Positions 1 through 47,690 of a stretch of 64,000 nucleotides of DNA are shown here, piece after piece. The translations under genes and the position numbers were made by a program. Within the stretch, counting starts at the first letter, position 1, and every line of letters starts with the position of its first letter. The notes under the pieces were generated by a model. It was not told where the DNA came from and made no database searches. It saw only the letters and a list, made by a program, of their open reading frames with translations. Source of the DNA: Spirochaetia bacterium (GTDB lineage: Bacteria > Spirochaetota > Spirochaetia > SZUA-6 > Bin103); assembly GCA_965208575.1 (NCBI GenBank), contig CBDBOV010000003.1, forward strand, positions 544,001 through 608,000, read 5' to 3'.

Positions 1-279
1 GACCGCGAATACTTCGCCTACGCCAGGACGTTCGCCGGTCGCGCCACCTACTTCGTGTATTTCCGTGATGACATCTGGGGCGCCATGGTGCTGCACAACT
101 TCACCGACATGCTGCGCGCCGTGTTCCAGAACTCACCCGTCAAGCTGACTCTCGTCGAACAGGAACTCTCTCTCAAACATCCTGCCGTTCTCGGCTTCCT
201 GAGACAATCTCCTGAGGACCCCTCAGCACCACCGACAGGAGATCTCGCCCGCGGCCACCGGCAACCCGGTGCAGAATAA
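1..279 (+). CDS. 3' part of a hypothetical protein (5' truncated by window edge), probably inside an inserted element
   Basis: Open frame from position 1 (DREYFAYARTFAGRATYFVYFRDDIWG...) to TAA at 277-279; unrelated to the repeat gene on the opposite strand. Confidence 0.5.
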   Translation, partial: DREYFAYARTFAGRATYFVYFRDDIWGAMVLHNFTDMLRAVFQNSPVKLTLVEQELSLKHPAVLGFLRQSPEDPSAPPTGDLARGHRQPGAE

Positions 280-333
280 TATGGTGTCCAGATTACCGTG
301 CGAAAAAACAGCAGAATTACGTGAGACCCAACA
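1..333. mobile_element. End of a putative IS21-like or other insertion element interrupting the giant gene
   Basis: The cadherin-repeat consensus (..ATCACGGT|GAGCGCG) breaks at 333/334. Read on the minus strand, the foreign DNA begins 5'-TGTTGGGTCTCACGTAATTCTGC..TCGCACGGTAATCTGG, i.e. a TGT end with a repeated subterminal motif. No transposase is visible in the window. Confidence 0.45.
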
Positions 334-3300
334 ACCGTGATCGTCACCGTCCCCGCCGCCGCAGACTCCTTGTCGTCGGAATCGGTCACCTTGTACGTGA
401 AGCTCGCCTTCCCGTTCCAGTCCGCCACCGGCTCGAACACCAGCGTCCCCAGGTCGGCGGCCGCTACCGAGGCCCCGGCGATCACCGCAGCCAGCGGATC
501 GCCTGCCCTCAGCGTCCCGTGCGTGGCGTCCGGCAGCGTCACGATCTTCACCGACTTCAGCGTGTGCCCGTTCGGGTCGCTGAACGCCCCCGTGAAGTCA
601 CTCGCCGCGAACATCAGCGTCGTGTCCTCGGCCACGCTCTTGCCGATGTTCGACCCCGTCGGCCGCTCGCCCACGGCGATGGTGACGGTCGCTGCCGCCG
701 CCGACTCGGCGTCGGAGGAGTCGGTCACCTTGTACGTGAAGCTCGCCGTGCCGTTCCAGTTCGCCACCGGCACGAAGGTGATCGTCCCCAGGCTCGCCGC
801 CACCACGGTCTGATTGGCGCTCGCCGCCGCCGTGCCCACCTTCAGCGTCCCGCCCGTGCCGGCCGGCAGCGTCACGATCTTCACCGACTTCAGCGCGTGC
901 CCGTCCGCGTCGCTGAACGCTCCCGTGAAGTCATTCGCCGCAAACGTCAGCGTCGTGCTCTCCGCGGTGCTCTTGCTGATGTCCGACGCCGCCGGCAGGT
1001 CGTCCACCGCGCTCACCGTGATCGTCACCGTCGCCGCCGCCACCGACTCCTCGTCGTCGGAGTCGGTCACCTTGTACGTGAAGCTCGCCTTCCCGTTCCA
1101 GTCCGCCGCAGGCTCGAACGTGATCGTCCCCAGGCTCGCCGCCAGCACGCTCTGTCCCGCGCTCGCGTCCGCCGTGCCCACCTTCAGCGTCCCGTGCGCG
1201 GCGGTCGGCAGCGTCACGATCTTCACCGACTTCAGCGTGTGCCCGTCCGGGTCGCTGAACGCGCCGGTGAAGTCGGACGCCGCGAACGTCAGCGTCGTGT
1301 CCTCGTTGACCGTCTTGCTGATGTCCGACGCCGTCGGCGCGTCGTCCACCGCGCTCACCGTGATGCTCACGGTCGCGGTGGCCACCGACTCCTCGTCGTC
1401 GGAGTCGGTCACCTTGTAGGTGTAGCTCGCAGACCCGTTCCAGTCCGCCGCCGGCTCGAACGTGAGGGTGCCCAGGTTGGCGGCGGTGATCGAGTCCCCG
1501 GCGCTCACCGCAGTCAGCGGATTGCCTGCCTTCAGCGTCCCGTGCGTGGCGGTCGGCAGCGTCACGATCTTCACCGACTTCAACGTGTGCCCGTCCGCGT
1601 CGCTGAACGCGCCGGTGAAATCGCTGGCCGCGAACGTCAGCGTCGTGTCCTCGTTGACCGTCTTGCTGATGTCCGACGCGGTCGGGGCGTCGTCCACCGC
1701 GCTCACCGTGATGCTCACGGTCGCGGCGTCCGCCGACTCCTCGTCGTCGGAGTCGGTCACCTTGTAGGTGAAGCTCGCAGACCCGTTCCAGTCCGCCGCC
1801 GGCTCGAACGTGAGGGTGCCCAGGTTGGCGGCCGCTACCGAGGCGCCCGCGCTCACCGCAGCCAGCGGATTGCCTGCCTTGAGGGTGCCGTGCGCGGCGG
1901 CCGGCAGGGTGACGATCTTCACCGACTTCAGCGTGTGCCCGTTCGGGTCGCTGAACGCCCCCGTGAAGTCACTCGCCGCGAACGTCAGCGTCGTGTCCTC
2001 CGCAGTGCTCTTGCTGATGTCCGACCCGGTCGGCCGTTCGCCCACGGCGATGGTCACGGTGGCTGCCGCCGCCGATTCGGCGTCGGAGGAGTCGGTCACC
2101 TTGTACGTGAAGCTCGCCGTGCCGTTCCAGTTCGCCACCGGCACGAAGGTGATCGTCCCCAGGCTCGCCGCCACCACGGTCTGATTGGCGCTCGCCGCCG
2201 CCGTGCCCACCTTCAGCGTCCCGCCCGTGCCGGCCGGCAGCGTCACGATCTTCACCGACTTCAGCGCGTGCCCGTCCGCGTCGCTGAACGCTCCCGTGAA
2301 GTCATTCGCCGCAAACGTCAGCGTCGTGCTCTCCGCGGTGCTCTTGCTGATGTCCGACGCCGCCGGCAGGTCGTCCACCGCGCTCACCGTGATCGTCACC
2401 GTCGCCGCCGCCACCGACTCCTCGTCGGCGGAGTCGGTCACCTTGTACGTGAAGCTCGCCTTCCCGTTCCAGTCCGCCGCAGGCTCGAACGTGATCGTCC
2501 CCAGGCTCGCCGCCAGCACGCTCTGTCCCGCGCTCGCGTCCGCCGTGCCCACCTTCAGCGTCCCGTGCGCGGCGGTCGGCAGCGTCACGATCTTCACCGA
2601 CTTCAGCGTGTGCCCGTCCGGGTCGCTGAACGCGCCGGTGAAGTCGGACGCCGCGAACGTCAGCGTCGTGTCCTCGTTGACCGTCTTGCTGATGTCCGAC
2701 GCCGTCGGCGCGTCGTCCACCGCGCTCACCGTGATGCTCACGGTCGCGGTGGCCACCGACTCCTCGTCGTCGGAGTCGGTCACCTTGTAGGTGTAGCTCG
2801 CAGACCCGTTCCAGTCCGCCGCCGGCTCGAACGTGAGGGTGCCCAGGTTGGCGGCGGTGATCGAGTCCCCGGCGCTCACCACAGTCAGCGGATTGCCTGC
2901 CTTCAGCGTCCCGTGCGTGGCGGTCGGCAGCGTCACGATCTTCACCGACTTCAACGTGTGCCCGTCGGGGTCGCTGAACGCGCCGGTGAAGTCACTCGCC
3001 GCAAACATCAGCGTCGTGTCCTCCGCGGTGCTCTTCCTGATGTCCGACGCCGTCGGCAGGTCGTCCACCGCGCTCACCGTGATCGTCACCGTCCCCGCCG
3101 CCGCAGACTCCTTGTCGTCGGAATCGGTCACCTTGTACGTGAAGCTCGCCTTCCCGTTCCAGTCCGCCACCGGCTCGAACACCAGCGTCCCCAGGTCGGC
3201 GGCCGCTACCGAGGCCCCGGCGATCACCGCAGCCAGCGGATCGCCTGCCCTCAGCGTCCCGTGCGTGGCGTCCGGCAGCGTCACGATCTTCACCGACTTC

Positions 3301-6300
3301 AGCGTGTGCCCGTTCGGGTCGCTGAACGCCCCCGTGAAGTCACTCGCCGCGAACGTCAGCGTCGTGTCCTCGGCCACGCTCTTGCCGATGTCCGACCCCG
3401 TCGGCCGCTCGCCCACGGCGATGGTGACGGTCGCTGCCGCCGCCGACTCGGCGTCGGAGGAGTCGGTCACCTTGTACGTGAAGCTCGCCGTGCCGTTCCA
3501 GTTCGCCACCGGCACGAAGGTGATCGTCCCCAGGCTCGCCGCCACCACGGTCTGATTGGCGCTCGCCGCCGCCGTGCCCACCTTCAGCGTCCCGCCCGTG
3601 CCGGCCGGCAGCGTCACGATCTTCACCGACTTCAGCGCGTGCCCGTCCGCGTCGCTGAACGCTCCCGTGAAGTCATTCGCCGCAAACGTCAGCGTCGTGC
3701 TCTCCGCGGTGCTCTTGCTGATGTCCGACGCCGTCGGCAGGTCATCCACCGCGCTCACCGTGATCGTCACCGTCGCCGCCGCCACCGACTCCTCGTCGTC
3801 GGAGTCGGTCACCTTGTACGTGAAGCTCGCCTTCCCGTTCCAGTCCGCCGCAGGCTCGAACGTGATCGTCCCCAGGCTCGCCGCCAGCACGCTCTGTCCC
3901 GCGCTCGCGTCCGCCGTGCCCACCTTCAGCGTCCCGTGCGCGGCGGTCGGCAGCGTCACGATCTTCACCGACTTCAGCGTGTGCCCGTCCGGGTCGCTGA
4001 ACGCGCCGGTGAAGTCGGACGCCGCGAACGTCAGCGTCGTGTCCTCGTTGACCGTCTTGCTGATGTCCGACGCCGTCGGCGCGTCGTCCACCGCGCTCAC
4101 CGTGATGCTCACGGTCGCGGTGGCCACCGACTCCTCGTCGTCGGAGTCGGTCACCTTGTAGGTGTAGCTCGCAGACCCGTTCCAGTCCGCCGCCGGCTCG
4201 AACGTGAGGGTGCCCAGGTTGGCGGCCGCCACCGAGGCGCCGGCGCTCACTGCAGCCAGCGGATTGCCTGCCTTCAACGTCCCGTGCCCGCCATCCGGCA
4301 GCGTCACGATCTTCACCGACTTCAGCGTGTGCCCGTCGGGGTCGCTGAACGCGCCGGTGAAATCGCTGGCCGCGAACGTCAGCGTCGTGTCCTCGTTGAC
4401 CGTCTTGCTGATGTCCGACGCGGTCGGGGCGTCGTCCACCGCGCTCACCGTGATGCTCACGGTCGCGGCGTCCGCCGACTCCTCGTCGTCGGAGTCGGTC
4501 ACCTTGTACGTGAAGCTCGCCTTCCCGTTCCAGTCCGCCGCCGGCTCGAACTTGAGGGTGCCCAGGTTGGCGGCCGTGATCGAGGCGCCGGCGCTCACCG
4601 CAGCCAGCGGATCGCCTGCCTTCAACGTCCCGTGCGCGGCGGTCGGCAGCGTCACGATCTTCACCGACTTCAGCGTGTGGCCGTCCGGGTCGCTGAACGC
4701 GCCGGTGAAGTCCGCCGCCGCGAACGTCAGCGTCGTGTCCTCGTTGACCGTCTTGCTGATGTCCGACGCCGTCGGCTTGTCGTCTACCGCGCTCACCGTG
4801 ATGCTCACGGTCGCGGCGTCCGCGGACTCATCGTCGTCGGAGTCGGTCACCTTGTACGTGAAGCTCGCCTTCCCGTTCCAGTCCGCCGCCGGCTCGAACT
4901 TGAGCGTCCCCAGGCTGCCGGCCAGCACGACCTGACTGGTGGTCGCGTCCGTCGTGCCGACCTTCAGCTTCCCGTGCTCGGCGTCCGGCAGCGTCACCAC
5001 CTTCACCGACTTCAGCGTGTGCCCGTCCGCGTCGCTGAACGCTCCCGTGAAGTCAGACGCCGCGAACGTCAGCGTCGTGTCCTCGTCCACGGTCTTGCTG
5101 ATGCCGGACGCCGTCGGCGCCGTCGCCCAGGCCGCCTTCGCGGTCTCGGCCTCCGCGGGACCCGCGTTCGCCCCGTCGCTCGCCGCGTTGGCCCTCACCG
5201 CCACGACCACGTCGGACCCGGACGTGGGCATCACCGCCAGCGTGTAGGTCCTGGCGTCGGTGGCGGCGAACGTCCCCGTCGTTCCGCCGGTTACCGCCAC
5301 GTCGCCGGCCGCGAACTCCCTCACGTCCTCCGACCACGTGAACGTGGCCGTGAATGCCGTCGTCGAGTTGATCTTGGCCGGCACCCCGGTGATCGCCACC
5401 GTCGGAGCCGTCGCGTCCCACGTCGCCTTCGCGGTCTCGGTCGCCGCCGGACCCGTGTTGACCCCGTCGGTGGCCGCGTCATTCGCCACCGTCACGACCA
5501 CGCTGGCCCCGGACGTCGGCGTCACCGCCAGCGTGTAGGTTCTGGCGTCGGTGGCGGCGAACGTCCCCGTCGTTCCGCCGGTTACCGTCACGTCCCCGGT
5601 CGCGAAACCCCTCACGTCCTCCGACCACGTGAACGTGGCCGTGAACGCCGCCGTCGAGTTGATCTTGCCCGGCACCCTGGTGATCGCCACCGTCGGCGCC
5701 GCCGCGTCCCAGGTCGCCGTCGCGGTCTCGGTCGCCGCCGGACCCGTGTTGACCCCGTCGGTCGCCGAGTTCGCCGCCACCGTCACGACCACGCTGGCCC
5801 CGGACGTCGGCGTCACCGCCAGCGTGTAGGTTCTGGCGTCGGTGGCGGCGAACGTCCCCGTCGTTCCGCCGGTTACCGTCACGTCCCCGGCCGCGAAGTC
5901 CGTCACGTCCTCCGACCAGGTGAACGTCACGGTGCGATCGCTCGTCGAGTTGATCCTGGCCGGCACTCCGGTGATCGCCACCGTCGGCGCCGCCGCGTCC
6001 CAGGTCGCCGTCTCGGTCACCGCCGCCGCCGGACCCGTGTTGACCCCGTCGGTGGCCGCGTCATTCGCCACCGTCACGACTACGCCGGCCCCGGACGTCG
6101 GCGTCACCAACAGCGTGTAGGTCCTGGCGTCGGTGGCGGCGAACGTCCCCTTCGTCCCGCCGGTCACCGTCACGTCCCCGGCCGCGAAGTCCGTCACGTC
6201 CTCCGACCACCTGAACGTCACGCTCAGCGCAGTCGTCGCGTTGATCTTGGCCGGCACACCGGTGATCGCCACCGTCGGCGCCGCCGCGTCCCAGGCCGCC

Positions 6301-9300
6301 GTCTCGGTCACCGCCGCCGCCGGACCCGTGTTGACCCCGTCGGTGGCCGCGTCATTCGCCACCGTCACGACCACGCCGGCCCCGGACGTCGGCGTGACCA
6401 ACAGCGTGTAGGTCCTGGCGTCGGTGGCGGCGAACGTCCCCTTCGTCCCGCCGGTCACCGTCACGTCCCCGGTCGCGAATCCCGTCACGTCCTCCGACCA
6501 GGTGAACGTCACGGTGCGATCGCTCGTCGCGTTGATCTTGGCCGGCACACCGGTGATCGCCACCGTCGGCGCCGCCGCGTCCCAGGTCGCCGTCTCGGTC
6601 ACCGCCGCCGCCGGACCCGTGTTGACCCCGTCGGTGGCCGCGTCATTCGCCACCGTCACGACCACGCCGGCCCCGGACATCGGCGTCACCAACAGCGTGT
6701 AGGTCCCGGCGTCGGTGGCGACGAACGTCCCCTTCGTTCCGCCGGTCACCGTCACGTCCCCGGCCGCGAAGTCCGTCACGTCCTCCGACCACGTGAACGT
6801 CACGCTCAGCGCAGTCGTCGCGTTGATCTTCGAAGGCACACCGCTGATCCCCACCGTCGGCGCCGTCGCGTCCCAGGTCGCCGTCTCGGTCACCGCCGCC
6901 GCCGGACCCGTGTTGACCCCGTCGGTGGCCGCGACATTCGCCACCGTCACCACCACGTCGGCATTCCCCGACGGCGTCACCGCCAGCGTGTACTCCTTGC
7001 CGCTGGTGGCCGTGAACGTCCCTTTCGTCCCGCCGGTCACCGTCACGTCCCCGGCCGCGAAGTCCGTCACGTCCTCCGACCACGTGAACGTCACGTCCAG
7101 CGCCGTCCTCGCGTTGATCTTCGAAGGTACACCGCTGATCCCGACCGTCGGCGCCGTCGCGTCCCAGGTCGCCGTCGCGGTCTCGGCCGCCGCCGGACCC
7201 GTGTTGACCCCGTCGGTGGCCGCGACATTCGCCACCGTCACCACCACGTCGGCATTCCCCGACGGCGTCACCAACAGCGTGTAGGTCCTGGCGTCGGTGG
7301 CGGCGAACGTCCCCTTCGTTCCGCCGGTCACCGTCACGTCGCCGGTCTCGAACCCCGTCACGTCCTCCGACCACGTGAACGTCACGTCCAGCGCCGTCGT
7401 CGCGTTGATCTTCGAAGGCACACCGCTGATCCCGACCGTCGGCGCCGTCGCGTCCCAGGTCGCTGTCGCGGTCACCGCCGAGGCCGGACCCGTGTTCGCC
7501 CCGTCGGTCGCCGCGTCATTCGCCACCGTCACCACCACGTCCGCAGAGGCGGTCGGGGTGACGATCAGCGTGTACTCCGTGGCGCTCGTCGCCTCGAGCG
7601 TTCCCTTCGCACCCCCCGTCACCGTCACGTCTCCGGTCTCGAATCCCGTCACGTCCTCCGAGAACGTGAACGTGACCGTGAACGCCGTCGTCGCGTTGAT
7701 CTTCGAAGGCACACCGCCGATCCCCACCGTCGGCGCCGTCGCGTCCCAGGTCGCCGTCGCGGTCTCGGCCGCCGCCGGACCCGTGTTGACCCCGTCGGTG
7801 GCCGCGACATTCGCCACCGTCACCACCACGTCGGCATTCCCCGATGGCGTCACCGCCAGCGTGTACTCCTTGCCGCTGGTGGCCGTGAACGTCCCCTTCG
7901 TCCCGCCGGTCACCGTCACGTCCCCGGCCGCGAAGTCCGTCACGTCCTCCGACCACGTGAACGTCACGTCCAGCGCCGTCGTCGCGTTGATCTTCGAAGG
8001 CACGCCGCTGATCCCGACCGTCGGCGCCGTCGCGTCCCAGGTCGCCGTCTCGGTCTCGGCCGCCGCCGGACCCGTGTTGACCCCGTCGGTGGCCGCGACA
8101 TTCGCCACCGTCACCACCACGTCGGCATTCCCGGACGGCGTCACCACCAGCGTGTACTTCTTGGCGCTGGTGGCCGTGAACGCCCCCTTCGTTCCGCCGG
8201 TCACCGTCACGTCGCCGGTCTCGAACCCCGTCACGTCCTCCGACCACGTGAACGTCACGTCCAGCGCCGTCGTCGCGTTGATCTTCGAAGGCACACCGCT
8301 GATCCCGACCGTCGGCGCCGTCGCGTCCCAGGTCGCCGTCGCGGTCACCGCCGCCGCCGGACCCGTGTTGACCCCGTCGGTCGCCGCGTCATTCGCCACC
8401 GTCACGACCACGCTCGACCCGGACGCGGGCGTCACGACGAGAGTGTAGGTGCGGGCGTCGGTGACGGCGAACGTCCCCTTCGTCCCGCCGGTCACCGTCA
8501 CGTCGCCGGTCTCGAACCCCGTCACGTCCTCCGACCAGGTGAACGTCACGGTGAGATCGCTCGTCGCGTTGATCCGGGCCGGCACCCCGGTGATCCCCAC
8601 CGTTGGCGTTTCGCTGTCGAACAGCGTCAGCGGCAGGTCGTCCGCGGCGGCGTAGCTGATTCCACGGAAGCAGGGTGACTCACTCCTCGGGCAGCCGGCA
8701 ACGCTCGGCGACGGCAGCGTCCCGACGTTCACCTGCGCCGGCTGTCCGTCGGTCGACTGCGTCACCGTGAAGGTCGAACTCGCCAGCCCCCCGGCGCCGA
8801 CCGACGCCGATGCTGGCGCCGTAGCGCCCGTCACGCTCAGCGGAACCTCCAGGCTCTCGGGCGCGCCCTCGCGAACCGTCACCTTCACCGTCGCCGGACT
8901 CCCCGCGTGCGGCGCCCCGTCGGTCCGCTCCAGACCCACCGTCAGCGCAAACGGCGCACCCGGATTGCCGGTCAGGTCCAGCTCCCCCAGCACGGTCAAC
9001 CCGTTGAACACGCCCGGCGGCAAACTGCTCAGACCGGTGTTTTGCAAATACAGATAATGCAGCCTGGTCAGCCCGTCGAACACGTCCGGCGGCAAACTGC
9101 TCAGATTGTTGCCATCCAGGTCCAGCCGCGTCAGCCAGGTCAGGTCGTCGAACACGTCCGGCGGCAAACTGCTCAGATTGTTGTCGGACAGATTCAGATG
9201 ACTCAGCCAGGTCAGGTCGTCGAACACGTCCGGCGGCAAACTGCTCAGATTGTTGTCGGACAGATACAGACTACTCAGCCAGGTCAGGTCGTCGAACACG

Positions 9301-12300
9301 TCCGGCGGCAAACTGCTCAGATTGTTGTCGGACAGATTCAGACTATTCAGCCGGGTCAGGTCGTCGAACGCGTCCGGCGGTAAACTGCTCAGACTGTTGC
9401 CGCCCAGCCGCAACGTCCTCAGCGCGGTCAGGTCGTCGAACACGCCCAGCGGCCAACTGCTCAGATTGTTGTCGGACAGATCCAGTGTCCTCAGCCTGGG
9501 CAGATCGTCGAACACGCCCGGCGGTAAACTGCTTATATCGTTGCCAATCAGCCACAGCGACGTCAGCCCGGTCAGCCCGGCAAAGTCGCCGGTCCGCAGC
9601 GACTCGATGCCGAGGCCAGGCAACAACCAAAGCGTGATGCCCGCCAGGTCCGCCAGGGTGACGGCCTGGCAGTCCGTCTTCGAGACCGTTCTCAGAATAC
9701 TGTTTTGCAACTGCCGGGTGCGGCCGCAGATGCCCGTGAAGGGGGTGCTGTTGGTCACCGCCCGGTCCGTCAGGTAGCCCGCGTCGTTGCCCGCGATGTC
9801 CTGGACCGGGTTCGCCAACGGCGCCATGTAGCTCATCGTCACCATGTCGCCGTACGCCACCGCCGAGGCCAGCGTCAGCGTCACCGCCGAGCCGGTGATG
9901 GATACCGCGCCGCTGGCCGCCAAACTCACCTCGGTCCCGCCCACGTTCACCGTGAACGCGCTCGACGCCGGCTTCGAAGCCTCGTCCAACGCCTCGTTGT
10001 ACGTCAGGGTCAGCGTCGCCCCGTCCACCGCCGCGGTGGAGAGCGTCGGCGCCGCCGCGTCCCAGGCCGCCGTCTCGGTCACCGCCGTCGCCGGCCCCGT
10101 CTGCAGCCCGTCCGTCGCCGAGTTCGCAGCCACCGTCACGACCACGCCGGCCCCCGACGTGGGCGTCACCAACAGCGTGTAGGTCCTGGCGTCGGTGGCG
10201 GCGAACGTCCCCTTCGTCCCGCCGGTCACCGTCACGTCGCCGGTCTCGAATCCCGTCACGTCCTCCGACCAGGTGAACGTCACGGTGAGATCGCTCGTCG
10301 CGTTGATCCGGGCCGGCACCCCGGTGATCGCCACCGCCGGCGCCGCCGCGTCCCAGGCCGCCGTCTCGGTCACCGCCGCCGCCGGCCCCGTGTTGACCCC
10401 GTCGGTGGCCGCGTCGTTCGCCACCGTCACGACCACGTCGGCGTTCCCGGACGGTGTCACCGCCAGCGTGTACTCCCTGGCGCTGGTGGCCGTGAACGTC
10501 CCCTTCGTCCCGCCGGTCACCGTCACGTCCCCGGCCGCGAAGTCCGTCACGTCCTCCGACCACGTGAACGTGACCGTGCGCGCCGTCGCCGAGTCGATCC
10601 TGGGCGGCACCCCGGTGATCGCCACCTTCGGCGCCGCCGCGTCCCAGGCGGCCGTCGCCTCGACCGTCGCCGCCGGACCCGTCTGCAGCCCGTCCGTCAC
10701 CGAGTTCGCCGCCACCGTCACCACCACGTCCGCCGAGCCCGTCGGCGTTACCGCCAGCGAGTACTCCCTGTCGCTGGTCGCCGTGACCGTCCCCTTCGTA
10801 CCACCTGTCACCGTCACGTCACCCGTCTCGAACTCCGTCACGTCCTCCGACCACGTGAACGTCACGCTCAGCGCCGTCTTCGCGTTGATCTTCGAAGGCA
10901 CACCGCTGATCCCGACCTTCGGCGCCGCCGCGTCCCAGGCCGCCGTCTCGGTCACCGCCGCCGCCGGACCCGTGTTGACCCCGTCGGTGGCCGCGTCATT
11001 CGCCACCGTCACGACCACGCCGGCCCCGGACGTCGGCGTCACCAACAGCGTGTAGGTCCTGGCGTCGGTGGCGGCGAACGTCCCCTTCGTCCCGCCGGTC
11101 ACCGTCACGTCGCCGGTCTCGAATCCCGTCACGTCCTCCGACCACGTGAACGTCACGTTCAGCGCCGTCGTCGCGTTGATCTTCGAAGGCACACCGCTGA
11201 TCCCGACCTTCGGCGCCGCCGCGTCCCAGGCCGCCGTCTCGGTCACCGCCGCCGCCGGACCCGTGTTGACCCCGTCGGTCGCCGCGTTCGCCCCGACCGT
11301 CACGACCACGTCGGCACTCCCGGACGGCGTCACCGCCAGCGTGTACTCCCTGGCGCTGGTCGCCTTGAACGTCCCCTTCGTACCACCCGTCACCGTCACG
11401 TCACCCGTCTCGAACTCCGTCACGTCCTCCGACCACGTGAACGTGACCGTGAGCGCCGTCGCCGAGTCGATCTTGGCCGGCACCCCCGTGATCGCCACTG
11501 TCGGCGCCGCCGCGTCCCAGGCCGCCGTCTCGGTCACCGCCGCCGCCGGCCCCGTGTTGACCCCGTCGGTGGCCGCGTCGTTCGCCACCGTCACGACCAC
11601 GTCGGCGTTCCCGGACGGCGTCACCGCCAGCGTGTACTCCCTGGCGCTGGTGGCCGTGAACGTCCCCTTCGTACCACCTGTCACCGTCACGTCACCCGTC
11701 TCGAACTCCGTCACGTCTTCCGACCACGTGAACGTCACGGTGAGATCGCTCTTCGCGTTGATCTTGGCCGGCACCCCGGTGATCGCCATCGTCGGCGCCG
11801 CCACGTCCCAGGCCGCCGTCTCGGTCACCGCCGCCGCCGGACCCGTGTTCGCCCCGTCGGTCGCCGCGTTCGCCACGACCGTCACGACCACGTCGGCGTT
11901 CCCGGACGGCGTCACCACCAGCGTGTACTCCTTGGCGCTGGTGGCCGCGAACGTCCCCTTCGCCCCGCCGGTCACCGTCACGTCGTGAGTCTCGAACCCC
12001 GTCACGTCTTCCGACCACGTGAACGTCACGCTCAGCGCCGTCGTCGAGTTGACCGCCGAAGGCACCCCGGTGATCGCCATCGTCGGCGCCGCCACGTCCC
12101 AGGCCGCCGTTTCGGTCACCGCCGCCGCCGGCCCCGTGTTGACCCCGTCGGTCGCCGCGTTCGCCACGACCGTCACGACCACGTCGGCGTTCCCGGACGG
12201 CGTCACCACCAGCGTGTAGGTCTTGGCGTCCGTGGCGGCGAACGTTCCCTTCGTCCCGCCGGTCACCGTCACGTCGCCGGTCTCGAACCCCGTCACGTCC

Positions 12301-14630
12301 TCCGACCACGTGAACGTCACGAAGAAATCGCTCGCCGAGTTGATCCGGGCCGGCACCCCGGTGATCGCCACCGTCGGCGCCGCCGCGTCCCAGGCCGCCG
12401 TCTCGGTCACCGCCGCCGCCGGCCCCGTGTTGACCCCGTCGGTGGCCACGTCATTCGCCACCGTCACGACCACGTTGGACCCGGAGGTGGGCGTCACCGT
12501 CAGCGTGTAGGTCTTGGCGTCCGTGGCGGCGAACGTTCCCTTCGTCCCGCCGGTCACCGTCACGTCGCCGGTCTCGAACCCCGTCACGTCCTCCGACCAC
12601 GTGAACGTCACGCTCAGCGCCGTCGTCGAGTTGATCGCCGAAGGCACCCCGGTGATCGCCACCCTCGGCGTTTCGCTGCCGAACAGCGTCAGCGGCAGGT
12701 CGTCCGCGGCGGCGTAGCTGATTCCACGGAAGCAGGGTGGCCGCCACCCCCAGCAGCCGCCACGGTTCGGCGACGGCAGCGTCCCGACGTTCACCTGCGC
12801 CGGCTGTCCGTCGGTCGACTGCGTCACCGTGAAGGTCGAACTCGCCAGCCCCCCGGCGCCCACCGACGCCGATGCTGGCGCGGTAGCGCCCGTCACGCTC
12901 AGCGGAACCTCCAGGCTCTCGGGCGCGCCCTCGCGAACCGTCACCTTCACCGTCGCCGGACTCCCCGCGTGCGGCGCCCCGTCGGTCCGCTCCAGACCCA
13001 CCGTCAGCGCAAACGGCGCACCCGGATTGCGGGTCAGGTCCAGCTCCCCCAGCGCGGTCAACCCGTTGAACAACCCCGGCGGCAAACTGGTCAGCCTGTT
13101 GTCCTGCAGGTCCAGCGTCGTCAGCGCGGTCAGGTCGTCGAACACGCCCGGCGGTAAACTGCTCAGACTGTTGTAGCCCAGCCACAGCGACCTCAGCGCG
13201 GTCAACCCGTTGAACAACCCCGGCGGCAAACTGGTCAGCCTGTTGTCCTGCAGGTCCAGCGACGTCAGCGCGGTCAGGTCGTCGAACACGCCCGGCGGTA
13301 AACTGCTCAGACTGTTGCCGCTCAGCCTCAGCGACGTCAGCGCGGTCAGGTCGTCGAACACGCCCGGCGGCAAACTGCTCATATTGTTGCCGCTCAGGCC
13401 CAGCGACGTCAGCGCGGTCAGGTCGTCGAACACGCCCGGCGGCAAACTGGTCAGACTACTGTTGTCATACAGGTCCAGCTCCGTCAGCGCGGTCAGGTCG
13501 TCGAACACGCCCGGCGGTAAACTGCTCATATCGTTGCGAAACAGCCAAAGCTTCCGCAGCGCGGTCAGGTCGTCGAACACGCCCGGCGGTAAACTGCTCA
13601 GACTGTTGCCGCCCAGCCCCAGCTCCGTCAGCGCGGTCAGGTCGTCGAACACGCCCGGCGGTAAACTGCTCATATCGTTGTTAAACAGCCGCAGCTTCCG
13701 CAGCGCGGTCAGGTCGTCGAACACGCCCGGCGGCAAACTGGTCAGCCTGTTGCCGCTCAGCCTCAGCGACGTCAGCGCGGTCAGGTCGTCGAACACGCCC
13801 GGCGGCAAACTGGTCAGCCTGTTGCCATACAGGTCCAGCGTCGTCAGCGCCGTCAGCCCGGCAAAGTCACCGGCCTGCAACGATGGAGACGATCCGGAGA
13901 AGAGCTTTTCGGCCAGATTCAGCGACGTGATGCCCGCCAGGTCCGCCGCGGTGACGGCGCCGCATTTCGCCTTCGAGACCGCCTTCGCAAGGGCGTCACG
14001 CACCTCCGGGGTGCGGCTGCAGATGCCCGGATCGTTGTCCGTCACCGTCACCATTGCCGTCGACGCGCTGCCGCGCGTGTAGCCGTCGCCCGCCCGCAAC
14101 GCAAAGGTGATCACGCTGTCGACCTCGTCCAGGGCATCGTCCAGCGTGGCCACCGCCAGCGTGAACGACGCGGAACCGGCCGCGATCGTCATGCTCGTCG
14201 GCCTCGTGCTGCCCGAAAACGTCGTCATCGCCCCCGTCTCGGTCGCCACCCCGACCACCGTCAGCGTGGCGGCCGTCGAACCCGTGCGCGTCACCGTGAA
14301 CTCGGCGTTCGCCCCCTCCGTCACCGGACTCGAGACCGCCGCAACGGTCACCACCGGTTTGGTTTGAGACCAGGCTGGCGCGTCCACGAACAGAATCAGC
14401 AAGGCTGGCAGCAGGATCCTGCCGCCAGCCTTGCTATTGCTACATCGCTGTTGGGCTGTCCCGTTTTTCAGCCTACCCTGGCCGGCGCGCGTCACTGCGT
14501 CGCTACCGTCCACGGCGACCTGCAGCGTGAACGGCACGCCCATCTCCGTCTCGGCGGCGAGGCGGGAGAAGCCGCCCCGGCCCGCACCCGACCTGTCGGC
14601 TGTAGGCCACATGCCGTGCTTCCGAAACAT
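48..14630 (-). CDS. Giant repetitive surface protein/adhesin (Calx-beta-like, 2 LRR modules, Ig-like repeats, SwmB-like, cadherin-like repeats); native C-terminus lost at ~334
   Basis: 4860-aa ORF with a signal-like segment ILLPALLILFVDAPAWSQ, LxxLPxxVFDxLxxLxxLxLxxN repeats, 97-aa TFTWSEDVT repeats and ~114-aa EDTTLTF..DWNG repeats; start codon uncertain. Confidence 0.9.
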   Translation of the reverse strand: MFRKHGMWPTADRSGAGRGGFSRLAAETEMGVPFTLQVAVDGSDAVTRAGQGRLKNGTAQQRCSNSKAGGRILLPALLILFVDAPAWSQTKPVVTVAAVSSPVTEGANAEFTVTRTGSTAATLTVVGVATETGAMTTFSGSTRPTSMTIAAGSASFTLAVATLDDALDEVDSVITFALRAGDGYTRGSASTAMVTVTDNDPGICSRTPEVRDALAKAVSKAKCGAVTAADLAGITSLNLAEKLFSGSSPSLQAGDFAGLTALTTLDLYGNRLTSLPPGVFDDLTALTSLRLSGNRLTSLPPGVFDDLTALRKLRLFNNDMSSLPPGVFDDLTALTELGLGGNSLSSLPPGVFDDLTALRKLWLFRNDMSSLPPGVFDDLTALTELDLYDNSSLTSLPPGVFDDLTALTSLGLSGNNMSSLPPGVFDDLTALTSLRLSGNSLSSLPPGVFDDLTALTSLDLQDNRLTSLPPGLFNGLTALRSLWLGYNSLSSLPPGVFDDLTALTTLDLQDNRLTSLPPGLFNGLTALGELDLTRNPGAPFALTVGLERTDGAPHAGSPATVKVTVREGAPESLEVPLSVTGATAPASASVGAGGLASSTFTVTQSTDGQPAQVNVGTLPSPNRGGCWGWRPPCFRGISYAAADDLPLTLFGSETPRVAITGVPSAINSTTALSVTFTWSEDVTGFETGDVTVTGGTKGTFAATDAKTYTLTVTPTSGSNVVVTVANDVATDGVNTGPAAAVTETAAWDAAAPTVAITGVPARINSASDFFVTFTWSEDVTGFETGDVTVTGGTKGTFAATDAKTYTLVVTPSGNADVVVTVVANAATDGVNTGPAAAVTETAAWDVAAPTMAITGVPSAVNSTTALSVTFTWSEDVTGFETHDVTVTGGAKGTFAATSAKEYTLVVTPSGNADVVVTVVANAATDGANTGPAAAVTETAAWDVAAPTMAITGVPAKINAKSDLTVTFTWSEDVTEFETGDVTVTGGTKGTFTATSAREYTLAVTPSGNADVVVTVANDAATDGVNTGPAAAVTETAAWDAAAPTVAITGVPAKIDSATALTVTFTWSEDVTEFETGDVTVTGGTKGTFKATSAREYTLAVTPSGSADVVVTVGANAATDGVNTGPAAAVTETAAWDAAAPKVGISGVPSKINATTALNVTFTWSEDVTGFETGDVTVTGGTKGTFAATDARTYTLLVTPTSGAGVVVTVANDAATDGVNTGPAAAVTETAAWDAAAPKVGISGVPSKINAKTALSVTFTWSEDVTEFETGDVTVTGGTKGTVTATSDREYSLAVTPTGSADVVVTVAANSVTDGLQTGPAATVEATAAWDAAAPKVAITGVPPRIDSATARTVTFTWSEDVTDFAAGDVTVTGGTKGTFTATSAREYTLAVTPSGNADVVVTVANDAATDGVNTGPAAAVTETAAWDAAAPAVAITGVPARINATSDLTVTFTWSEDVTGFETGDVTVTGGTKGTFAATDARTYTLLVTPTSGAGVVVTVAANSATDGLQTGPATAVTETAAWDAAAPTLSTAAVDGATLTLTYNEALDEASKPASSAFTVNVGGTEVSLAASGAVSITGSAVTLTLASAVAYGDMVTMSYMAPLANPVQDIAGNDAGYLTDRAVTNSTPFTGICGRTRQLQNSILRTVSKTDCQAVTLADLAGITLWLLPGLGIESLRTGDFAGLTGLTSLWLIGNDISSLPPGVFDDLPRLRTLDLSDNNLSSWPLGVFDDLTALRTLRLGGNSLSSLPPDAFDDLTRLNSLNLSDNNLSSLPPDVFDDLTWLSSLYLSDNNLSSLPPDVFDDLTWLSHLNLSDNNLSSLPPDVFDDLTWLTRLDLDGNNLSSLPPDVFDGLTRLHYLYLQNTGLSSLPPGVFNGLTVLGELDLTGNPGAPFALTVGLERTDGAPHAGSPATVKVTVREGAPESLEVPLSVTGATAPASASVGAGGLASSTFTVTQSTDGQPAQVNVGTLPSPSVAGCPRSESPCFRGISYAAADDLPLTLFDSETPTVGITGVPARINATSDLTVTFTWSEDVTGFETGDVTVTGGTKGTFAVTDARTYTLVVTPASGSSVVVTVANDAATDGVNTGPAAAVTATATWDATAPTVGISGVPSKINATTALDVTFTWSEDVTGFETGDVTVTGGTKGAFTATSAKKYTLVVTPSGNADVVVTVANVAATDGVNTGPAAAETETATWDATAPTVGISGVPSKINATTALDVTFTWSEDVTDFAAGDVTVTGGTKGTFTATSGKEYTLAVTPSGNADVVVTVANVAATDGVNTGPAAAETATATWDATAPTVGIGGVPSKINATTAFTVTFTFSEDVTGFETGDVTVTGGAKGTLEATSATEYTLIVTPTASADVVVTVANDAATDGANTGPASAVTATATWDATAPTVGISGVPSKINATTALDVTFTWSEDVTGFETGDVTVTGGTKGTFAATDARTYTLLVTPSGNADVVVTVANVAATDGVNTGPAAAETATATWDATAPTVGISGVPSKINARTALDVTFTWSEDVTDFAAGDVTVTGGTKGTFTATSGKEYTLAVTPSGNADVVVTVANVAATDGVNTGPAAAVTETATWDATAPTVGISGVPSKINATTALSVTFTWSEDVTDFAAGDVTVTGGTKGTFVATDAGTYTLLVTPMSGAGVVVTVANDAATDGVNTGPAAAVTETATWDAAAPTVAITGVPAKINATSDRTVTFTWSEDVTGFATGDVTVTGGTKGTFAATDARTYTLLVTPTSGAGVVVTVANDAATDGVNTGPAAAVTETAAWDAAAPTVAITGVPAKINATTALSVTFRWSEDVTDFAAGDVTVTGGTKGTFAATDARTYTLLVTPTSGAGVVVTVANDAATDGVNTGPAAAVTETATWDAAAPTVAITGVPARINSTSDRTVTFTWSEDVTDFAAGDVTVTGGTTGTFAATDARTYTLAVTPTSGASVVVTVAANSATDGVNTGPAATETATATWDAAAPTVAITRVPGKINSTAAFTATFTWSEDVRGFATGDVTVTGGTTGTFAATDARTYTLAVTPTSGASVVVTVANDAATDGVNTGPAATETAKATWDATAPTVAITGVPAKINSTTAFTATFTWSEDVREFAAGDVAVTGGTTGTFAATDARTYTLAVMPTSGSDVVVAVRANAASDGANAGPAEAETAKAAWATAPTASGISKTVDEDTTLTFAASDFTGAFSDADGHTLKSVKVVTLPDAEHGKLKVGTTDATTSQVVLAGSLGTLKFEPAADWNGKASFTYKVTDSDDDESADAATVSITVSAVDDKPTASDISKTVNEDTTLTFAAADFTGAFSDPDGHTLKSVKIVTLPTAAHGTLKAGDPLAAVSAGASITAANLGTLKFEPAADWNGKASFTYKVTDSDDEESADAATVSITVSAVDDAPTASDISKTVNEDTTLTFAASDFTGAFSDPDGHTLKSVKIVTLPDGGHGTLKAGNPLAAVSAGASVAAANLGTLTFEPAADWNGSASYTYKVTDSDDEESVATATVSITVSAVDDAPTASDISKTVNEDTTLTFAASDFTGAFSDPDGHTLKSVKIVTLPTAAHGTLKVGTADASAGQSVLAASLGTITFEPAADWNGKASFTYKVTDSDDEESVAAATVTITVSAVDDLPTASDISKSTAESTTLTFAANDFTGAFSDADGHALKSVKIVTLPAGTGGTLKVGTAAASANQTVVAASLGTITFVPVANWNGTASFTYKVTDSSDAESAAAATVTIAVGERPTGSDIGKSVAEDTTLTFAASDFTGAFSDPNGHTLKSVKIVTLPDATHGTLRAGDPLAAVIAGASVAAADLGTLVFEPVADWNGKASFTYKVTDSDDKESAAAGTVTITVSAVDDLPTASDIRKSTAEDTTLMFAASDFTGAFSDPDGHTLKSVKIVTLPTATHGTLKAGNPLTVVSAGDSITAANLGTLTFEPAADWNGSASYTYKVTDSDDEESVATATVSITVSAVDDAPTASDISKTVNEDTTLTFAASDFTGAFSDPDGHTLKSVKIVTLPTAAHGTLKVGTADASAGQSVLAASLGTITFEPAADWNGKASFTYKVTDSADEESVAAATVTITVSAVDDLPAASDISKSTAESTTLTFAANDFTGAFSDADGHALKSVKIVTLPAGTGGTLKVGTAAASANQTVVAASLGTITFVPVANWNGTASFTYKVTDSSDAESAAAATVTIAVGERPTGSDISKSTAEDTTLTFAASDFTGAFSDPNGHTLKSVKIVTLPAAAHGTLKAGNPLAAVSAGASVAAANLGTLTFEPAADWNGSASFTYKVTDSDDEESADAATVSITVSAVDDAPTASDISKTVNEDTTLTFAASDFTGAFSDADGHTLKSVKIVTLPTATHGTLKAGNPLTAVSAGDSITAANLGTLTFEPAADWNGSASYTYKVTDSDDEESVATATVSITVSAVDDAPTASDISKTVNEDTTLTFAASDFTGAFSDPDGHTLKSVKIVTLPTAAHGTLKVGTADASAGQSVLAASLGTITFEPAADWNGKASFTYKVTDSDDEESVAAATVTITVSAVDDLPAASDISKSTAESTTLTFAANDFTGAFSDADGHALKSVKIVTLPAGTGGTLKVGTAAASANQTVVAASLGTITFVPVANWNGTASFTYKVTDSSDAESAAAATVTIAVGERPTGSNIGKSVAEDTTLMFAASDFTGAFSDPNGHTLKSVKIVTLPDATHGTLRAGDPLAAVIAGASVAAADLGTLVFEPVADWNGKASFTYKVTDSDDKESAAAGTVTITVVGSHVILLFFRTVIWTPYYSAPGCRWPRARSPVGGAEGSSGDCLRKPRTAGCLRESSCSTRVSLTGEFWNTARSMSVKLCSTMAPQMSSRKYTK
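334..5120 (-). repeat. ~14 tandem cadherin-like domain repeats (~340 bp) with a 1371-bp higher-order period
   Basis: Near-identical blocks start at 814, 2185 and 3556 (spacing 1371 bp). Confidence 0.9.
5120..8605 (-). repeat. ~12 tandem 291-bp Ig-like domain repeats
   Basis: Unit APTVAITGVP..TFTWSEDVT..GGTKG..YTL.VTP..GPAAAVTETA.WD recurs every 291 bp. Confidence 0.9.
8960..9735 (-). repeat. LRR module 2 (72-bp repeats, Cys N-cap)
   Basis: GICGRT..C cap followed by ~9 24-aa LRRs. Confidence 0.9.
10050..12670 (-). repeat. ~9 tandem 291-bp Ig-like domain repeats
   Basis: Same unit as 5120-8605. Confidence 0.9.
13020..14032 (-). repeat. LRR module 1 (72-bp repeats, Cys N-cap)
   Basis: GICSRT..C cap followed by ~12 24-aa LRRs (LSSLPPGVFDDLTAL consensus). 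Confidence 0.9.
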
Positions 14631-14923: not shown

Positions 14924-15067
14924 GGCGCGCGTGAAGCGGATCGACTGCGCGGCCAGCCGGTCGATGTTGGGTGTCCGCATGGCGCCGTTGCCGTAGCAGC
15001 CGAGGGAGGCCGGACGCAAGGTGTCGGCGGCGATGACCACGATGGGCGGGCGCTGCGGTTCGGTCAT
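14924..15067 (-). pseudogene. Sulfatase N-terminal remnant
   Basis: MTEPQRPPIVVIAADTLRPASLGCYGNGAMRTPNIDRLAAQSIRFTRA matches the sulfatase N-terminus; similarity stops before the CxPxR motif. Confidence 0.7.
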
Positions 15068-15140
15068 GCGCCAGAGCATCTCCTTGCGTCGCGATCCGGC
15101 AACCCGGTTTCCTGATAGGATGGATTCGGACGGAGAGTAC

Positions 15141-38707: not shown

Positions 38708-38814
38708 TCGTGGCCCGTTGGCAGGGTAGATTAGCCGTCCGCATCTCTTTTCCTCGGCGGATACGCACAAAATACCGCTGGTGAGTCTCTCGATGATGGC
38801 GCTACAATTCCGAA

Positions 38815-40773: not shown

Positions 40774-40776
40774 GGT

Positions 40777-43620: not shown

Positions 43621-43961
43621 TACTGCGGTCCCGTAGATATCAGTGGTTCAATGAGCGTGAGGAGGTTCGGGACGCTCTGCTGCGAGGTGTTCCATACGAT
43701 GTCCATATCGATGTCGTCATACCCGTGGATCATCCGGTTGCGCATTCCGGTCATTGAGGTCCAGGGGACCTCGGGGTGACCTGCGCGGAACTCCGACGAC
43801 ACCCGACCGGCGGCCTCACCGACAATCTCAAGACGACGGATGACCGAGTCCTGAAGTGCCGTGTCCCGAAGGAATCGGTCACGTTCTACACCTCGCACGT
43901 AGTCAACTATGAGACGAGCTGACAAGACGATGTCGACGAGATAGTCTGAATCACGACTCAT
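43620..43961 (-). CDS. hepT: HepT-like (DUF86/HEPN) RNase toxin
   Basis: EIVGEAA, RNRMIHGY (RX4HXY motif). Confidence 0.85.
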   Translation of the reverse strand: MSRDSDYLVDIVLSARLIVDYVRGVERDRFLRDTALQDSVIRRLEIVGEAAGRVSSEFRAGHPEVPWTSMTGMRNRMIHGYDDIDMDIVWNTSQQSVPNLLTLIEPLISTGPQ

Positions 43962-46882: not shown

Positions 46883-46990
46883 TAATCCCTCGTCTATCTC
46901 GTAACAGGGTGAACAAAACAACAGGTCGCCACCCATGTAGATGACAGAACCAGCTCGGACGTGAGAAGTCGAGGTCGTTCATGACCGATG

Positions 46991-47620: not shown

Positions 47621-47690
47621 TGGTAACGTACCCTTTCCTAAGCACGCGGCACTGCTTGTGGCGGTGCGTCTCGGCCATTGAATCGTTGAC

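Follow-up and report, generated by a model that had tools for sequence, protein, structure and literature searches.

Two arrays of leucine-rich repeats (LRRs) in a spirochaete genome raise the question of how one half of a repeat unit can stay almost constant while the other differs from copy to copy, and of whether this pattern reflects a diversifying system comparable to the variable lymphocyte receptors (VLRs) of lampreys and hagfish, with which a preliminary description of the sequence had compared it. The arrays lie in the window analysed here, a stretch of 64,000 nucleotides; the features of the locus are collected in Table 1. The best reading is that they probably reflect concerted evolution of the repeats together with retained changes on a binding face, at the tip of a type Va autotransporter adhesin whose gene has been split by a transposon.

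Table 1. Features of the adhesin locus. Positions count from the first nucleotide of the window; those with the prefix C3 are contig positions.
Feature	Position	Strand	Remarks
Right end of 3,571-bp Mu/Tn552-like (Tn6049-like) transposon	1..333	.	Whole element C3:540763-544333
5' piece of giant type Va autotransporter adhesin gene	334..14630	-	4,766 codons
14 cadherin-like repeats of 348 bp (Cadherin_5 / Big_9 / Cadherin_4)	334..5129	-	Transposon cuts array
Stalk 2: 12 Big_12 repeats of 291 bp	5111..8608	-	
Last degenerate LRR and post-LRR beta-sandwich domain 2	8580..8990	-	aa 1881-2017; 91% protein identity to domain 1
Variable loop 2, SVAGCPRSESPC	8670..8705	-	Divergent between post-LRR domains 1 and 2
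LRR array 2: 8 units of 24 aa	8991..9566	-	aa 1689-1880
N-cap, LRR module 2	9567..9734	-	aa 1633-1688; 67% DNA identity to N-cap 1
SWM_repeat-like linker domain	9819..10061	-	aa 1524-1604; Pfam PF13753, 57.2 bits
Stalk 1: 9 Big_12 repeats of 291 bp	10044..12670	-	
Last degenerate LRR and post-LRR beta-sandwich domain 1	12642..13052	-	aa 527-663; structure model; no Pfam family
Variable loop 1, NRGGCWGWRPPC	12732..12767	-	Divergent between post-LRR domains 1 and 2
LRR array 1: 11 units of 24 aa (one of 25)	13053..13847	-	aa 262-526
N-cap, LRR module 1	13848..14027	-	aa 202-261; helical, two conserved Cys (CxRT...C)
N-terminal beta-rich domain	14031..14357	-	Calx-beta-like by eye only; Pfam Calx-beta E 0.13, below threshold
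Hydrophobic stretch ILLPALLILFV, then DAPAWS	14385..14417	-	aa 72-82, read by eye
3' piece of adhesin gene	C3:531541-540762	-	Ends in autotransporter beta-domain

Both modules have the same layout, in which a helical cap with two cysteines leads into 11 or 8 LRRs of 24 residues and these into a fused beta-sandwich. Tandem Repeats Finder placed the 72-bp arrays at 13050-13856 (11.2 copies) and 9002-9533 (7.4 copies). With LxxLxLxxNxLxxLPxxxFxxLxx, which we take to be the unit pattern of typical-class LRRs (Pfam LRR_8 / LRR_4), as the yardstick, the units belong to that class: LRR_8 matched with 360 bits in 10 stretches, and LRR_4 with 208 bits, both above the gathering score.

Across the 19 units, entropy reached 1.9-2.6 bits at unit positions 2, 3, 5, 7, 8 and 10, whereas positions 13-23 stayed within 0-0.8 bits and position 24 had 1.5 bits. 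The preliminary description had reported 24-residue repeats with a constant scaffold and a variable strand, and we found them where it had placed them. At the DNA level, unit positions 13-24 are almost invariant, rare codons included, and identical stretches of 36-40 bp are present in all units. All 11 first halves (positions 1-12) of module 1 are distinct, whereas its second halves (positions 13-24) are of only three kinds. Variable nucleotide columns were concentrated in the face codons, where they made up 15 of 18 columns in module 1 versus 10 of 54 elsewhere (Fisher p = 1.3e-6), and 16 of 18 versus 17 of 54 in module 2 (p = 2.3e-5). An even spread of variation over the scaffold, the pattern that the preliminary description had named as contrary to its proposal, was thus not seen.

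The constant half carries a signature in its codons. Ser-Leu is encoded there as AGT-TT(G/A) in 19/19 units; in five neighbouring genes, AGT makes up 5.9% of 307 Ser codons, and of 590 Leu codons none is TTA and 8.8% are TTG. The fixation of rare AGT and TTA/TTG in every one of the units shows that the DNA identity stems from common descent or from homogenisation rather than from codon bias. We also counted for homogenisation over codon bias that the two N-caps are only 67% identical in DNA (121/180 columns), whereas the sandwich domains are ~99% identical outside a 27-nt patch at the Cys loop.

Nei-Gojobori proportions were pN 0.52-0.55 and pS 0.23-0.42 at the face codons, and pN 0.05-0.12 and pS 0.03-0.14 at the other codons. 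The resulting pN/pS of the face is 2.2 in module 1 (versus 0.4 on the convex side), 1.3 in module 2 and 1.5 for all units; computed on saturated, very short partitions of paralogous repeats, and with pS also raised at the face codons, these sequence-based values do not demonstrate positive selection at the face. The closest pairs of units are U9-U11 (1 nt), U2-U8 (3 nt), and U3-U5, U1-U6 and U4-U8 (4 nt each), and nearest neighbours are dispersed over the array at lags 1, 2, 4, 5 and 6. This dispersal fits intragenic exchange, in agreement with the recombination among 72-bp units that had been suggested. A simple duplication of 5-unit blocks, prompted by a 363-bp period, was rejected because pairs at lag 5 are not the closest ones.

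When the two post-LRR domains were aligned, we observed 2 differences over ~290 nt, followed by the variable patch (columns 365-391), in which about half of the bases differ, and then by identity again over ~90 nt. The patch straddles the first Cys of the loop, covering 4 residues before it and 5 after it, and is therefore not strictly enclosed by the two Cys. The claim that the ~115-residue domains behind the two modules are nearly identical except for one loop was thereby confirmed, with the loops at the expected places, loop 1 spanning aa 622-633.

A Pfam search with the sandwich domain matched no family. Searching proteins with the sandwich alone returned 3 proteins; a single-protein scan of genomes gave 3 loci, in which only the LRR part matched, and a metagenome scan gave 2 weak loci. 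Against the protein Atlas there were only sub-threshold leads (0.80-0.84) to Big_1/invasin-like clusters, and 1 of 60 related genomes contained the domain, as a weak match (E 8.9e-4). The sandwich-domain family comprises at least 397 representative protein clusters at E<=0.001. In 31 homologues, face entropy exceeded the entropy of the convex x positions in 55/55 arrays of at least 6 units, with means of 1.67 and 0.78 bits, respectively. The scaffold motif itself varies by protein: it is PPGVFDD here, PSGVFDE in homologue P0003 and PEDVFDG in P0012. The loop is a family-wide indel hotspot, with lengths of 0-24 and with 149/240 copies lacking the Cys pair, and the Cys loops comprise 88 distinct sequences among 91. 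In homologues with several modules, each module has its own loop (distinct in 8/8 for P0002, 9/9 for P0014 and 6/6 for P0007). We saw no association between having a Cys loop and having an LRR array directly before the domain (64/106 versus 21/35; odds ratio 1.0), and an obligatory binding site made of loop plus face is therefore not favoured.

An AF2 model of residues 201-663 had a pLDDT of 95.4, across the LRR-sandwich junction too, and a pTM of 0.91; the sandwich modelled alone reached a pLDDT of 87.0. The model places helices of N-cap 1 at model residues 8-17 and 28-32, and both N-cap Cys are kept in the consensus of 46 homologous rows. Strand parity (DSSP) weakly suggests that the loop would sit at the end of the sandwich that joins the LRRs. 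In a Foldseek search, InlA (LRR plus Ig-like domain) aligned with the model over ~480 columns, its best rows reaching TM 0.54 and others 0.36, and engineered LRRTM2 showed 53-56% identity. For the sandwich by itself, Foldseek returned nothing at E<=0.001; this domain is a generic beta-sandwich that resembles GH2 C-terminal, Calx-beta and intimin domains at Z 8.6-7.4.

The predicted architecture of helical N-cap, LRR solenoid and directly fused Ig-like beta-sandwich is shared with the Listeria internalin domain (InlA, 1o6t), and in both it makes up a single binding unit of a surface protein. However, internalin units have 22 residues, and internalins have an LRR_adjacent domain and cell-wall anchoring, whereas the adhesin has 24-residue units and an autotransporter barrel as its anchor. 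By sequence the modules do not belong to the internalins, as there was no LRR_adjacent match and the internalin_A NCBIfam model scored 73 bits against a cut-off of 1600.

VLRs are defined by Cys-rich LRRNT and LRRCT caps with a variable insert in the LRRCT, and their convex-half consensus resembles SLPxGVFDxLTxL. The adhesin shares with them the 24-residue typical LRR unit and, in its 19 units, the concentration of variation on concave-strand positions. In contrast, LRRNT and LRRCT are lacking, the N-cap being helical with 2 Cys, and there is neither an incomplete germline gene nor a library of donor cassettes. The variable loop, which had been taken for a VLR-type C-cap, is located in a separate beta-sandwich of ~125 residues, ~90 residues beyond the last LRR, and not in an LRRCT insert. 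Nor did a specific kinship with VLRs hold up, since the repeats are of the general 24-residue typical class and a good number of other animal LRR proteins are closer: among solved structures, the top matches by sequence were human LRRC15 (E 1.2e-75) and engineered LRRTM2 (1.4e-70), then SHOC2 and ALS, and both LRRC15 and LRRTM2 scored above VLR A (2o6q, 1.1e-42) and VLR B (3.1e-38). What survives of the VLR-like pattern is the constant scaffold with variable concave-face positions and a variable loop; VLR-type caps and a cassette library are not supported, and no population variants were seen in the contigs used.

Two other systems resemble the locus in the pattern or the mechanism of its variation. 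Altae-Tran et al. (2020, PMC10392669) describe surface LRR proteins of Flavobacterium psychrophilum that are hypervariable at positions of a single face and bear signatures of recombination, liken them to VLRs, propose a role in adhesion and report that the loci changed within days of phage challenge. On that description, both are bacterial surface LRR proteins with a conserved scaffold and a single hypervariable face. The F. psychrophilum proteins have ~22-residue units, many small tandem genes (up to 19), a T9SS signal and intergenic gene fragments, whereas the adhesin combines two 24-residue arrays in a single giant autotransporter, is not accompanied by gene fragments elsewhere and has a sandwich with a variable loop fused to its LRRs. 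For the WD repeats of Podospora het-d/het-e, Paoletti et al. (2007, PMC1805685) give concerted evolution together with four surface positions under diversifying selection. The evolutionary mechanism would be common to both: concerted repeats that are reshuffled, each with a few diversified positions on an interaction surface. Peculiar to het-d/het-e are repeats of the WD40 type in place of LRRs, a cytoplasmic role in fungal allorecognition, exchange among 10 loci and RIP as the proposed mutator.

The whole adhesin gene, 5' and 3' pieces together, comprises ~7,840 codons. The listed ORF at 48-14630 (-), of 4,860 aa, runs 95 codons past the adhesin piece and into the transposon. From its sequence, the hydrophobic stretch near the N-terminus is a likely candidate for a signal-peptide core. 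The 3' piece contains ~21 further cadherin-like repeats, PKD and He_PIG domains and, at its end, the autotransporter barrel (PF03797, 45.1 bits with a cut-off of 26; TIGR01414, 23.8 bits with a cut-off of 16). Thus, the C-terminal outer-membrane beta-barrel of a type Va system is present at the end of the 3' piece, but passenger and barrel are not in a single intact polypeptide, since the transposon separates the two pieces. The long Ig/cadherin display stalk that had been postulated is borne out by 21 Big_12 and 14 cadherin-like repeats in the window and by the additional repeats and barrel of the 3' piece.

The transposon flanks map to adjoining positions in one cadherin-like repeat, in the same register and with a 5-bp overlap, and the target-site duplication is ACCGT (5 bp). 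The element encodes a transposase (rve plus Mu-transpos_C) and an AAA_22 ATPase and has been recently active; its 8 genomic copies are all 100% identical. That the gene is split was beyond what the preliminary description could have seen. Because the 5' piece is without its barrel, the adhesin protein is probably not displayed in this genome, and the split makes the present-day function of the gene in this strain doubtful.

We found only the two in-gene LRR modules of this kind in the genome, the other LRR ORFs having 28-42% identity. All 54/54 blastn-short matches to the repeats fell in the contig bins C3:550000-559999, which hold the adhesin gene. No silent cassettes or extra modules were found across the 6.5-Mb genome, nor was there a third copy of the sandwich domain or of the loop flanks in it. 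For population variation, we used Logan contigs of 4 runs, which come from one study and at most two samples, are broken at repeats and may stem from the very sample behind the assembly. Loop 2 with its flanks (8524-8968) and loop 1 with its flanks (12680-12860) were recovered in short-read contigs with 0 differences. No variant was listed inside either LRR array or loop in the contigs of these 4 runs, which drop rare variants, and the expected variants in the repeats or the population were accordingly not seen in them. The listed single-base differences were confined to 10251-12679 of the Big_12 stalk and to position 8554, and they may be due to cross-mapping between repeats. One contig, X4 (depth 5.7, shorter side 22 letters), joins 9376 in array 2 to 13111 in array 1, with 32 unmatched letters between. 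We did not count this joint as evidence, because a single low-depth contig is too weak and could equally come from another organism.

In the favoured reading, concerted evolution with retained face changes, the region encodes the cell-distal tip of the adhesin. This tip carries two internalin-like binding modules, each with a helical disulfide N-cap, animal-type 24-residue LRRs and an Ig/Calx-beta-like sandwich with one exposed loop, and the Big_12 and cadherin-like stalks hold these modules off the outer-membrane barrel. Exchange between the 72-bp units, by unequal crossing-over and by gene conversion, would keep the convex, structural half near-identical in DNA, and substitutions at the six solvent-exposed concave beta-strand positions would be retained, so that each unit would present a different patch of ligand-binding surface. 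Both post-LRR domains would have been homogenised likewise, with the loop patch staying divergent, either because selection kept the loops different or because heterology itself may have blocked conversion tracts. Such diversity would be inherited and germline-encoded, built over evolutionary time and differing by module, protein and lineage, and would not stem from somatic or programmed assembly of the VLR type. A host or a neighbouring cell probably supplies the ligand, as a molecule of its surface or matrix.

The same data could also be read without any selection for diverse binding, as recent array expansions with a scaffold constrained by folding, an unconstrained face that drifts and an ordinary fast-evolving loop. 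Exposed beta-strand x positions and loops are variable in most LRR and Ig-like proteins, which favours this neutral account, as do the low face pN/pS of module 2 and the family-wide instability of the loop. However, the convex x positions are solvent-exposed too and yet are invariant even at synonymous sites, and S, D, R, T, G, N, Y and W are abundant among the residues of the face. The difference in pN/pS between the face and the convex side of module 1, as well as the distinct loop of each module in multi-module homologues, also argue against drift alone, and we regard it as unlikely. A retroelement that generates diversity (DGR), or a similar targeted mutagenesis of the loop, would suit a 27-nt hypervariable patch amid otherwise identical DNA. 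DGR variable regions are usually far longer than this patch, though, and the substitutions are of many kinds and not adenine-specific; moreover, there is no template repeat, because the sandwich domain has just two copies in the genome, both in the gene. Lacking a template copy and showing mixed substitutions, the loop was rejected as a DGR target, the probability of this explanation being close to nil.

Programmed shuffling of face cassettes, by which 72-bp units would recombine at high frequency with one another and between the modules within a population, would serve antigenic or adhesive variation and be the closest bacterial analogue of VLR assembly. The identical stretches in all units would be good substrates for RecA-dependent exchange, nearest-neighbour units are dispersed over the array, and contig X4, which may be another organism's, joins the two arrays; the rapid change of F. 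psychrophilum LRR loci under phage challenge, as reported in PMC10392669, offers a precedent. Nevertheless, the genome holds neither silent cassettes nor extra modules, the arrays and loops lacked listed variants in contigs that drop rare ones, and there is no recombinase or reverse transcriptase beside the gene except for the transposon that breaks it. We consider such shuffling very unlikely. A broader proposal extends to the family, in which LRR array and sandwich would form a widespread, uncurated bacterial recognition unit, with face and disulfide-bounded loop as a two-part site and with intragenic recombination re-assorting both between strains. If this were true, giant proteins would string together as many as 11 of these units, every one with a loop of its own, and would provide a heritable, population-level counterpart of VLR diversity by which symbionts recognise host or competitor surfaces; we think this proposal very unlikely.

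Variable-faced LRR surface proteins recur in host-associated bacteria, and this locus cleanly exemplifies concerted evolution in which change is limited to the face, the higher variability of the face being a family-wide rule. What its repeat consensus has in common with VLRs is found in typical-class LRRs generally and should not be taken for a mechanism like that of adaptive immunity. The split by the transposon shows that this strain, at least, can do without giant adhesin genes of this kind. The post-LRR sandwich, which is without a Pfam model, has as its most variable element a loop that is unique to each module, and if loop and face bind together, the LRR-sandwich module would be a defined unit for ligand screening.

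Both leucine-rich repeat (LRR) modules lie in one ORF of a giant adhesin gene, each consisting of an N-cap, 24-residue LRR units and a post-LRR beta-sandwich. Pfam finds 10 LRR_8, 21 Big_12 and one SWM_repeat stretches in this ORF, together with 14 cadherin-like repeats (Cadherin_5, Big_9 or Cadherin_4). The Big_12 stalk alternates two subtypes, …TDA[KR]TYTL…TSG… and …TSA[KR]EYTL…SGNAD…, and shows higher-order repeat structure with localised variation.

Features of the adhesin gene and the transposon that splits it (window coordinates unless marked C3, the whole contig)
Feature	Nucleotides	Residues	Strand	Remark
ORF with both LRR modules	48-14630	4,860 aa	-	single ORF
Signal-like hydrophobic stretch		72-82		spotted by eye
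Beta-rich domain				after signal-like stretch; Calx-beta match at E 0.13 only
Module 1, N-cap		202-261
Module 1, 11 LRRs		262-526
Module 1, post-LRR domain		527-663
Nine Big_12 repeats, SWM-like linker				between modules 1 and 2
Module 2, N-cap		1633-1688
Module 2, 8 LRRs		1689-1880
Module 2, post-LRR domain		1881-2017
Twelve Big_12 repeats, then cadherin-like repeats				C-terminal to module 2
72-bp arrays	13050-13856; 9002-9533			Tandem Repeats Finder
291-bp array, 9 copies (Big_12 stalk)	10044-12670			Tandem Repeats Finder
291-bp array, 12 copies (Big_12 stalk)	5111-8608			Tandem Repeats Finder
348-bp array, 14 copies	334-5129			Tandem Repeats Finder
Transposon, 3,571 bp	C3:540763-544333 (window 1-333 = part)			TGT... 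ends; ACCGT duplication

The preliminary description had reported LRR units with a constant scaffold and a variable concave face, and the counts bear this out. For the 19 units together, entropy ranges over 1.9-2.6 bits at face positions 2, 3, 5, 7, 8 and 10 and over 0-0.8 bits at positions 13-23. All first halves (positions 1-12) are distinct (11/11 in module 1, 8/8 in module 2), while the second halves (positions 13-24) comprise only 3 and 6 distinct sequences, respectively. At the nucleotide level, 15 of 18 columns vary in the face codons of module 1 compared to 10 of 54 in its other codons (Fisher p = 1.3e-6); for module 2, the values are 16 of 18 and 17 of 54 (p = 2.3e-5). Codon bias as the sole cause of scaffold identity is ruled out by Ser13-Leu14, which is encoded by AGT-TT(G/A) in 19/19 units; in five neighbouring genes, AGT accounts for 5.9% of 307 Ser codons, and TTA and TTG for 0 and 8.8% of 590 Leu codons.

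Nei-Gojobori estimates, for which one codon of a 25-residue unit was omitted to hold register, gave pN of 0.52-0.55 and pS of 0.23-0.42 for face codons, and pN of 0.05-0.12 and pS of 0.03-0.14 for the others (pN/pS 0.4-1.3). The face pN/pS ratios (2.2 for module 1, 1.3 for module 2, 1.5 for all units), computed on paralogous repeats in partitions that are short and saturated, are suggestive of positive selection but are not proof of it. The closest unit pairs (U9-U11, 1 nt; U2-U8, 3 nt; U3-U5, U1-U6 and U4-U8, 4 nt each) sit at scattered distances along the array. This spacing contradicts growth by a single block duplication and fits better with repeated rounds of local duplication or exchange.

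The two post-LRR domains, described previously as near-identical except for one loop, do share ~99% DNA identity outside a 27-nt patch. This similarity begins in the scaffold half of the last LRR and extends to the first Big_12 repeat; the N-caps share 67% (121/180 columns). Within the patch, which takes in the first Cys with the four residues preceding and the five following it (NRGG-C-WGWRP vs SVAG-C-PRSES), about half of the bases differ, a divergence resembling that of the modules' old parts. The pattern is most simply read as homogenisation of the flanks by gene conversion, from which the patch escaped, either because conversions through it would be selected against or because heterology itself would halt conversion tracts. 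Both loops were recovered in short-read contigs, possibly from the same sample as the assembly. On the proposed check of reads for repeat variants, no variant is listed within either LRR array, or within either loop, in these contigs, which are blind to rare variants.

With the 137-aa domain as query, HMMER searched all 1.84 billion representatives and matched 397 proteins at E<=0.001, of which 70 reached 1e-10 and 11 reached 1e-30; among 60 related genomes there was one match, a weak one. The best 150 of the 397, taken with the query, hold 309 domain copies across 150 proteins (at most 11 per protein), with the strict LRR motif preceding 207 of the 294 copies that begin at the domain start and 240 of the 309 extending beyond the loop. 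In this same set, loops span 0-24 residues (median 7, 240 copies), Cys spacing is 2-17, and at least two Cys occur in 91 copies, among which 88 loop sequences are distinct. Each module of a multi-module protein has its own loop (distinct in 8/8 for P0002, 9/9 for P0014, 6/6 for P0007, 6/6 for P0031, 4/4 for P0011 and 3/4 for P0006). Among close homologues, the Cys loop is absent from P0003 and P0012 and longer in P0004. Cys loops are equally likely with and without an LRR array upstream (odds ratio 1.0). Face entropy exceeded convex x entropy in 55/55 arrays (1.67 vs 0.78 bits), counting arrays of six or more units from 31 proteins, both of this gene included. The scaffold motif is specific to each protein, as concerted evolution predicts.

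Some modules of P0014 and P0031 have variable loops opening PRGDC or PQGD..., where this gene has NRGGC. PRGDC contains RGD, the classical integrin-binding tripeptide, which could hint at animal-cell ligands or be chance. P0004, the closest homologue (80-82% identity in the sandwich), ends in ~350 residues of Arg/Gly/Asp-rich nonsense; because these look like out-of-frame Big_12 repeats, its gene or contig probably carries a frameshift.

In an AF2 model of aa 201-663 (46 aligned rows; pLDDT 95.4, pTM 0.91), the cap is helical, the solenoid is regular and the last repeat is fused to a beta-sandwich of eight strands; the loop block has pLDDT 81. Foldseek placed engineered LRRTM2 (53-56% identity), designed LRRs and InlA (~480 columns, TM 0.54) at the top, followed by Toll, SHOC2 and Leptospira LRR proteins, with VLR-derived repebodies at about rank 36. 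By sequence, LRRC15 (1.2e-75) and LRRTM2 (1.4e-70) came first, and VLR A scored 1.1e-42. The sandwich has no family match in Pfam or NCBIfam. Modelled alone (pLDDT 87.0), it had no Foldseek match at E<=0.001, and its best structural alignments (GH2 C-terminal domains, Calx-beta CBD1, intimin/invasin; Z 8.6-6.8) are generic.

The pattern observed in the LRRs and the loop is real and well beyond what chance would give. Of its earlier interpretation, a variable putative binding face on a stalk stands, while a system like the lamprey variable lymphocyte receptors (VLRs) is wrong or unsupported. The 6.5-Mb genome holds two copies of the post-LRR domain, both within the adhesin gene; its other LRR ORFs are only 28-42% identical, and the repeat DNA has 54 blastn-short matches, every one of them in contig bins C3:550000-559999, the gene's own stretch. 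These searches found no donor cassette library, which takes away what defines VLR assembly at the genome level and also the template repeat that a diversity-generating retroelement requires. The internalins have the same cap-LRR-Ig arrangement. Surface LRR proteins of bacteria in which one face is hypervariable are already published for F. psychrophilum, with recombination and a comparison to VLRs (PMC10392669). Concerted evolution with surface-restricted diversification has been described in fungal WD repeats (PMC1805685). The post-LRR loop domain was not described in anything that our literature searches found, which is weak evidence of absence.

Divergent from the adhesin gene lies a modular PKS (15021-25738, + strand; KS-AT-DH, then MT-ER-KR-ACP-KS-AT), whose domain order is presumably similar to that of the methyl-branched fatty-acid PKS found in sponge symbionts. 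The overlap of its two ORFs at 18554-18869 may reflect a frame change within a single gene or a faulty assembly. Further along, the stretch at 38000-48000 is low in GC (53-60% vs ~67-70% in the surroundings) and probably represents a restriction or defence island that was acquired. It encodes a DUF4365+TPR protein and a ResIII helicase-like protein, as well as two N6_N4 DNA methylase ORFs lying side by side, perhaps parts of a single split gene.

The adhesin ORF exits its cadherin-like array at window 334 and continues for 95 codons of unrelated sequence. Below the window, a 3,073-aa ORF starts inside the same repeat type, carries ~21 further cadherin-like repeats, one PKD and one He_PIG domain, and ends in an autotransporter beta-domain (PF03797, 45.1 bits; TIGR01414, 23.8 bits). 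Between them lies a transposon encoding an rve/Mu-transposase-C protein, an AAA_22 ATPase and two small ORFs, and present in 8 genomic copies at 100% identity. The adhesin flanks are adjoining positions of one repeat, and their 5-bp overlap, ACCGT, is the target-site duplication. By coordinate arithmetic, the two gene pieces share a register, which indicates an ancestral type Va autotransporter of ~7,840 codons whose LRR modules sat farthest from the cell; the 5' piece found in this genome has no barrel. The most useful new items are this clean transposon split and an uncurated post-LRR domain with a module-specific loop.
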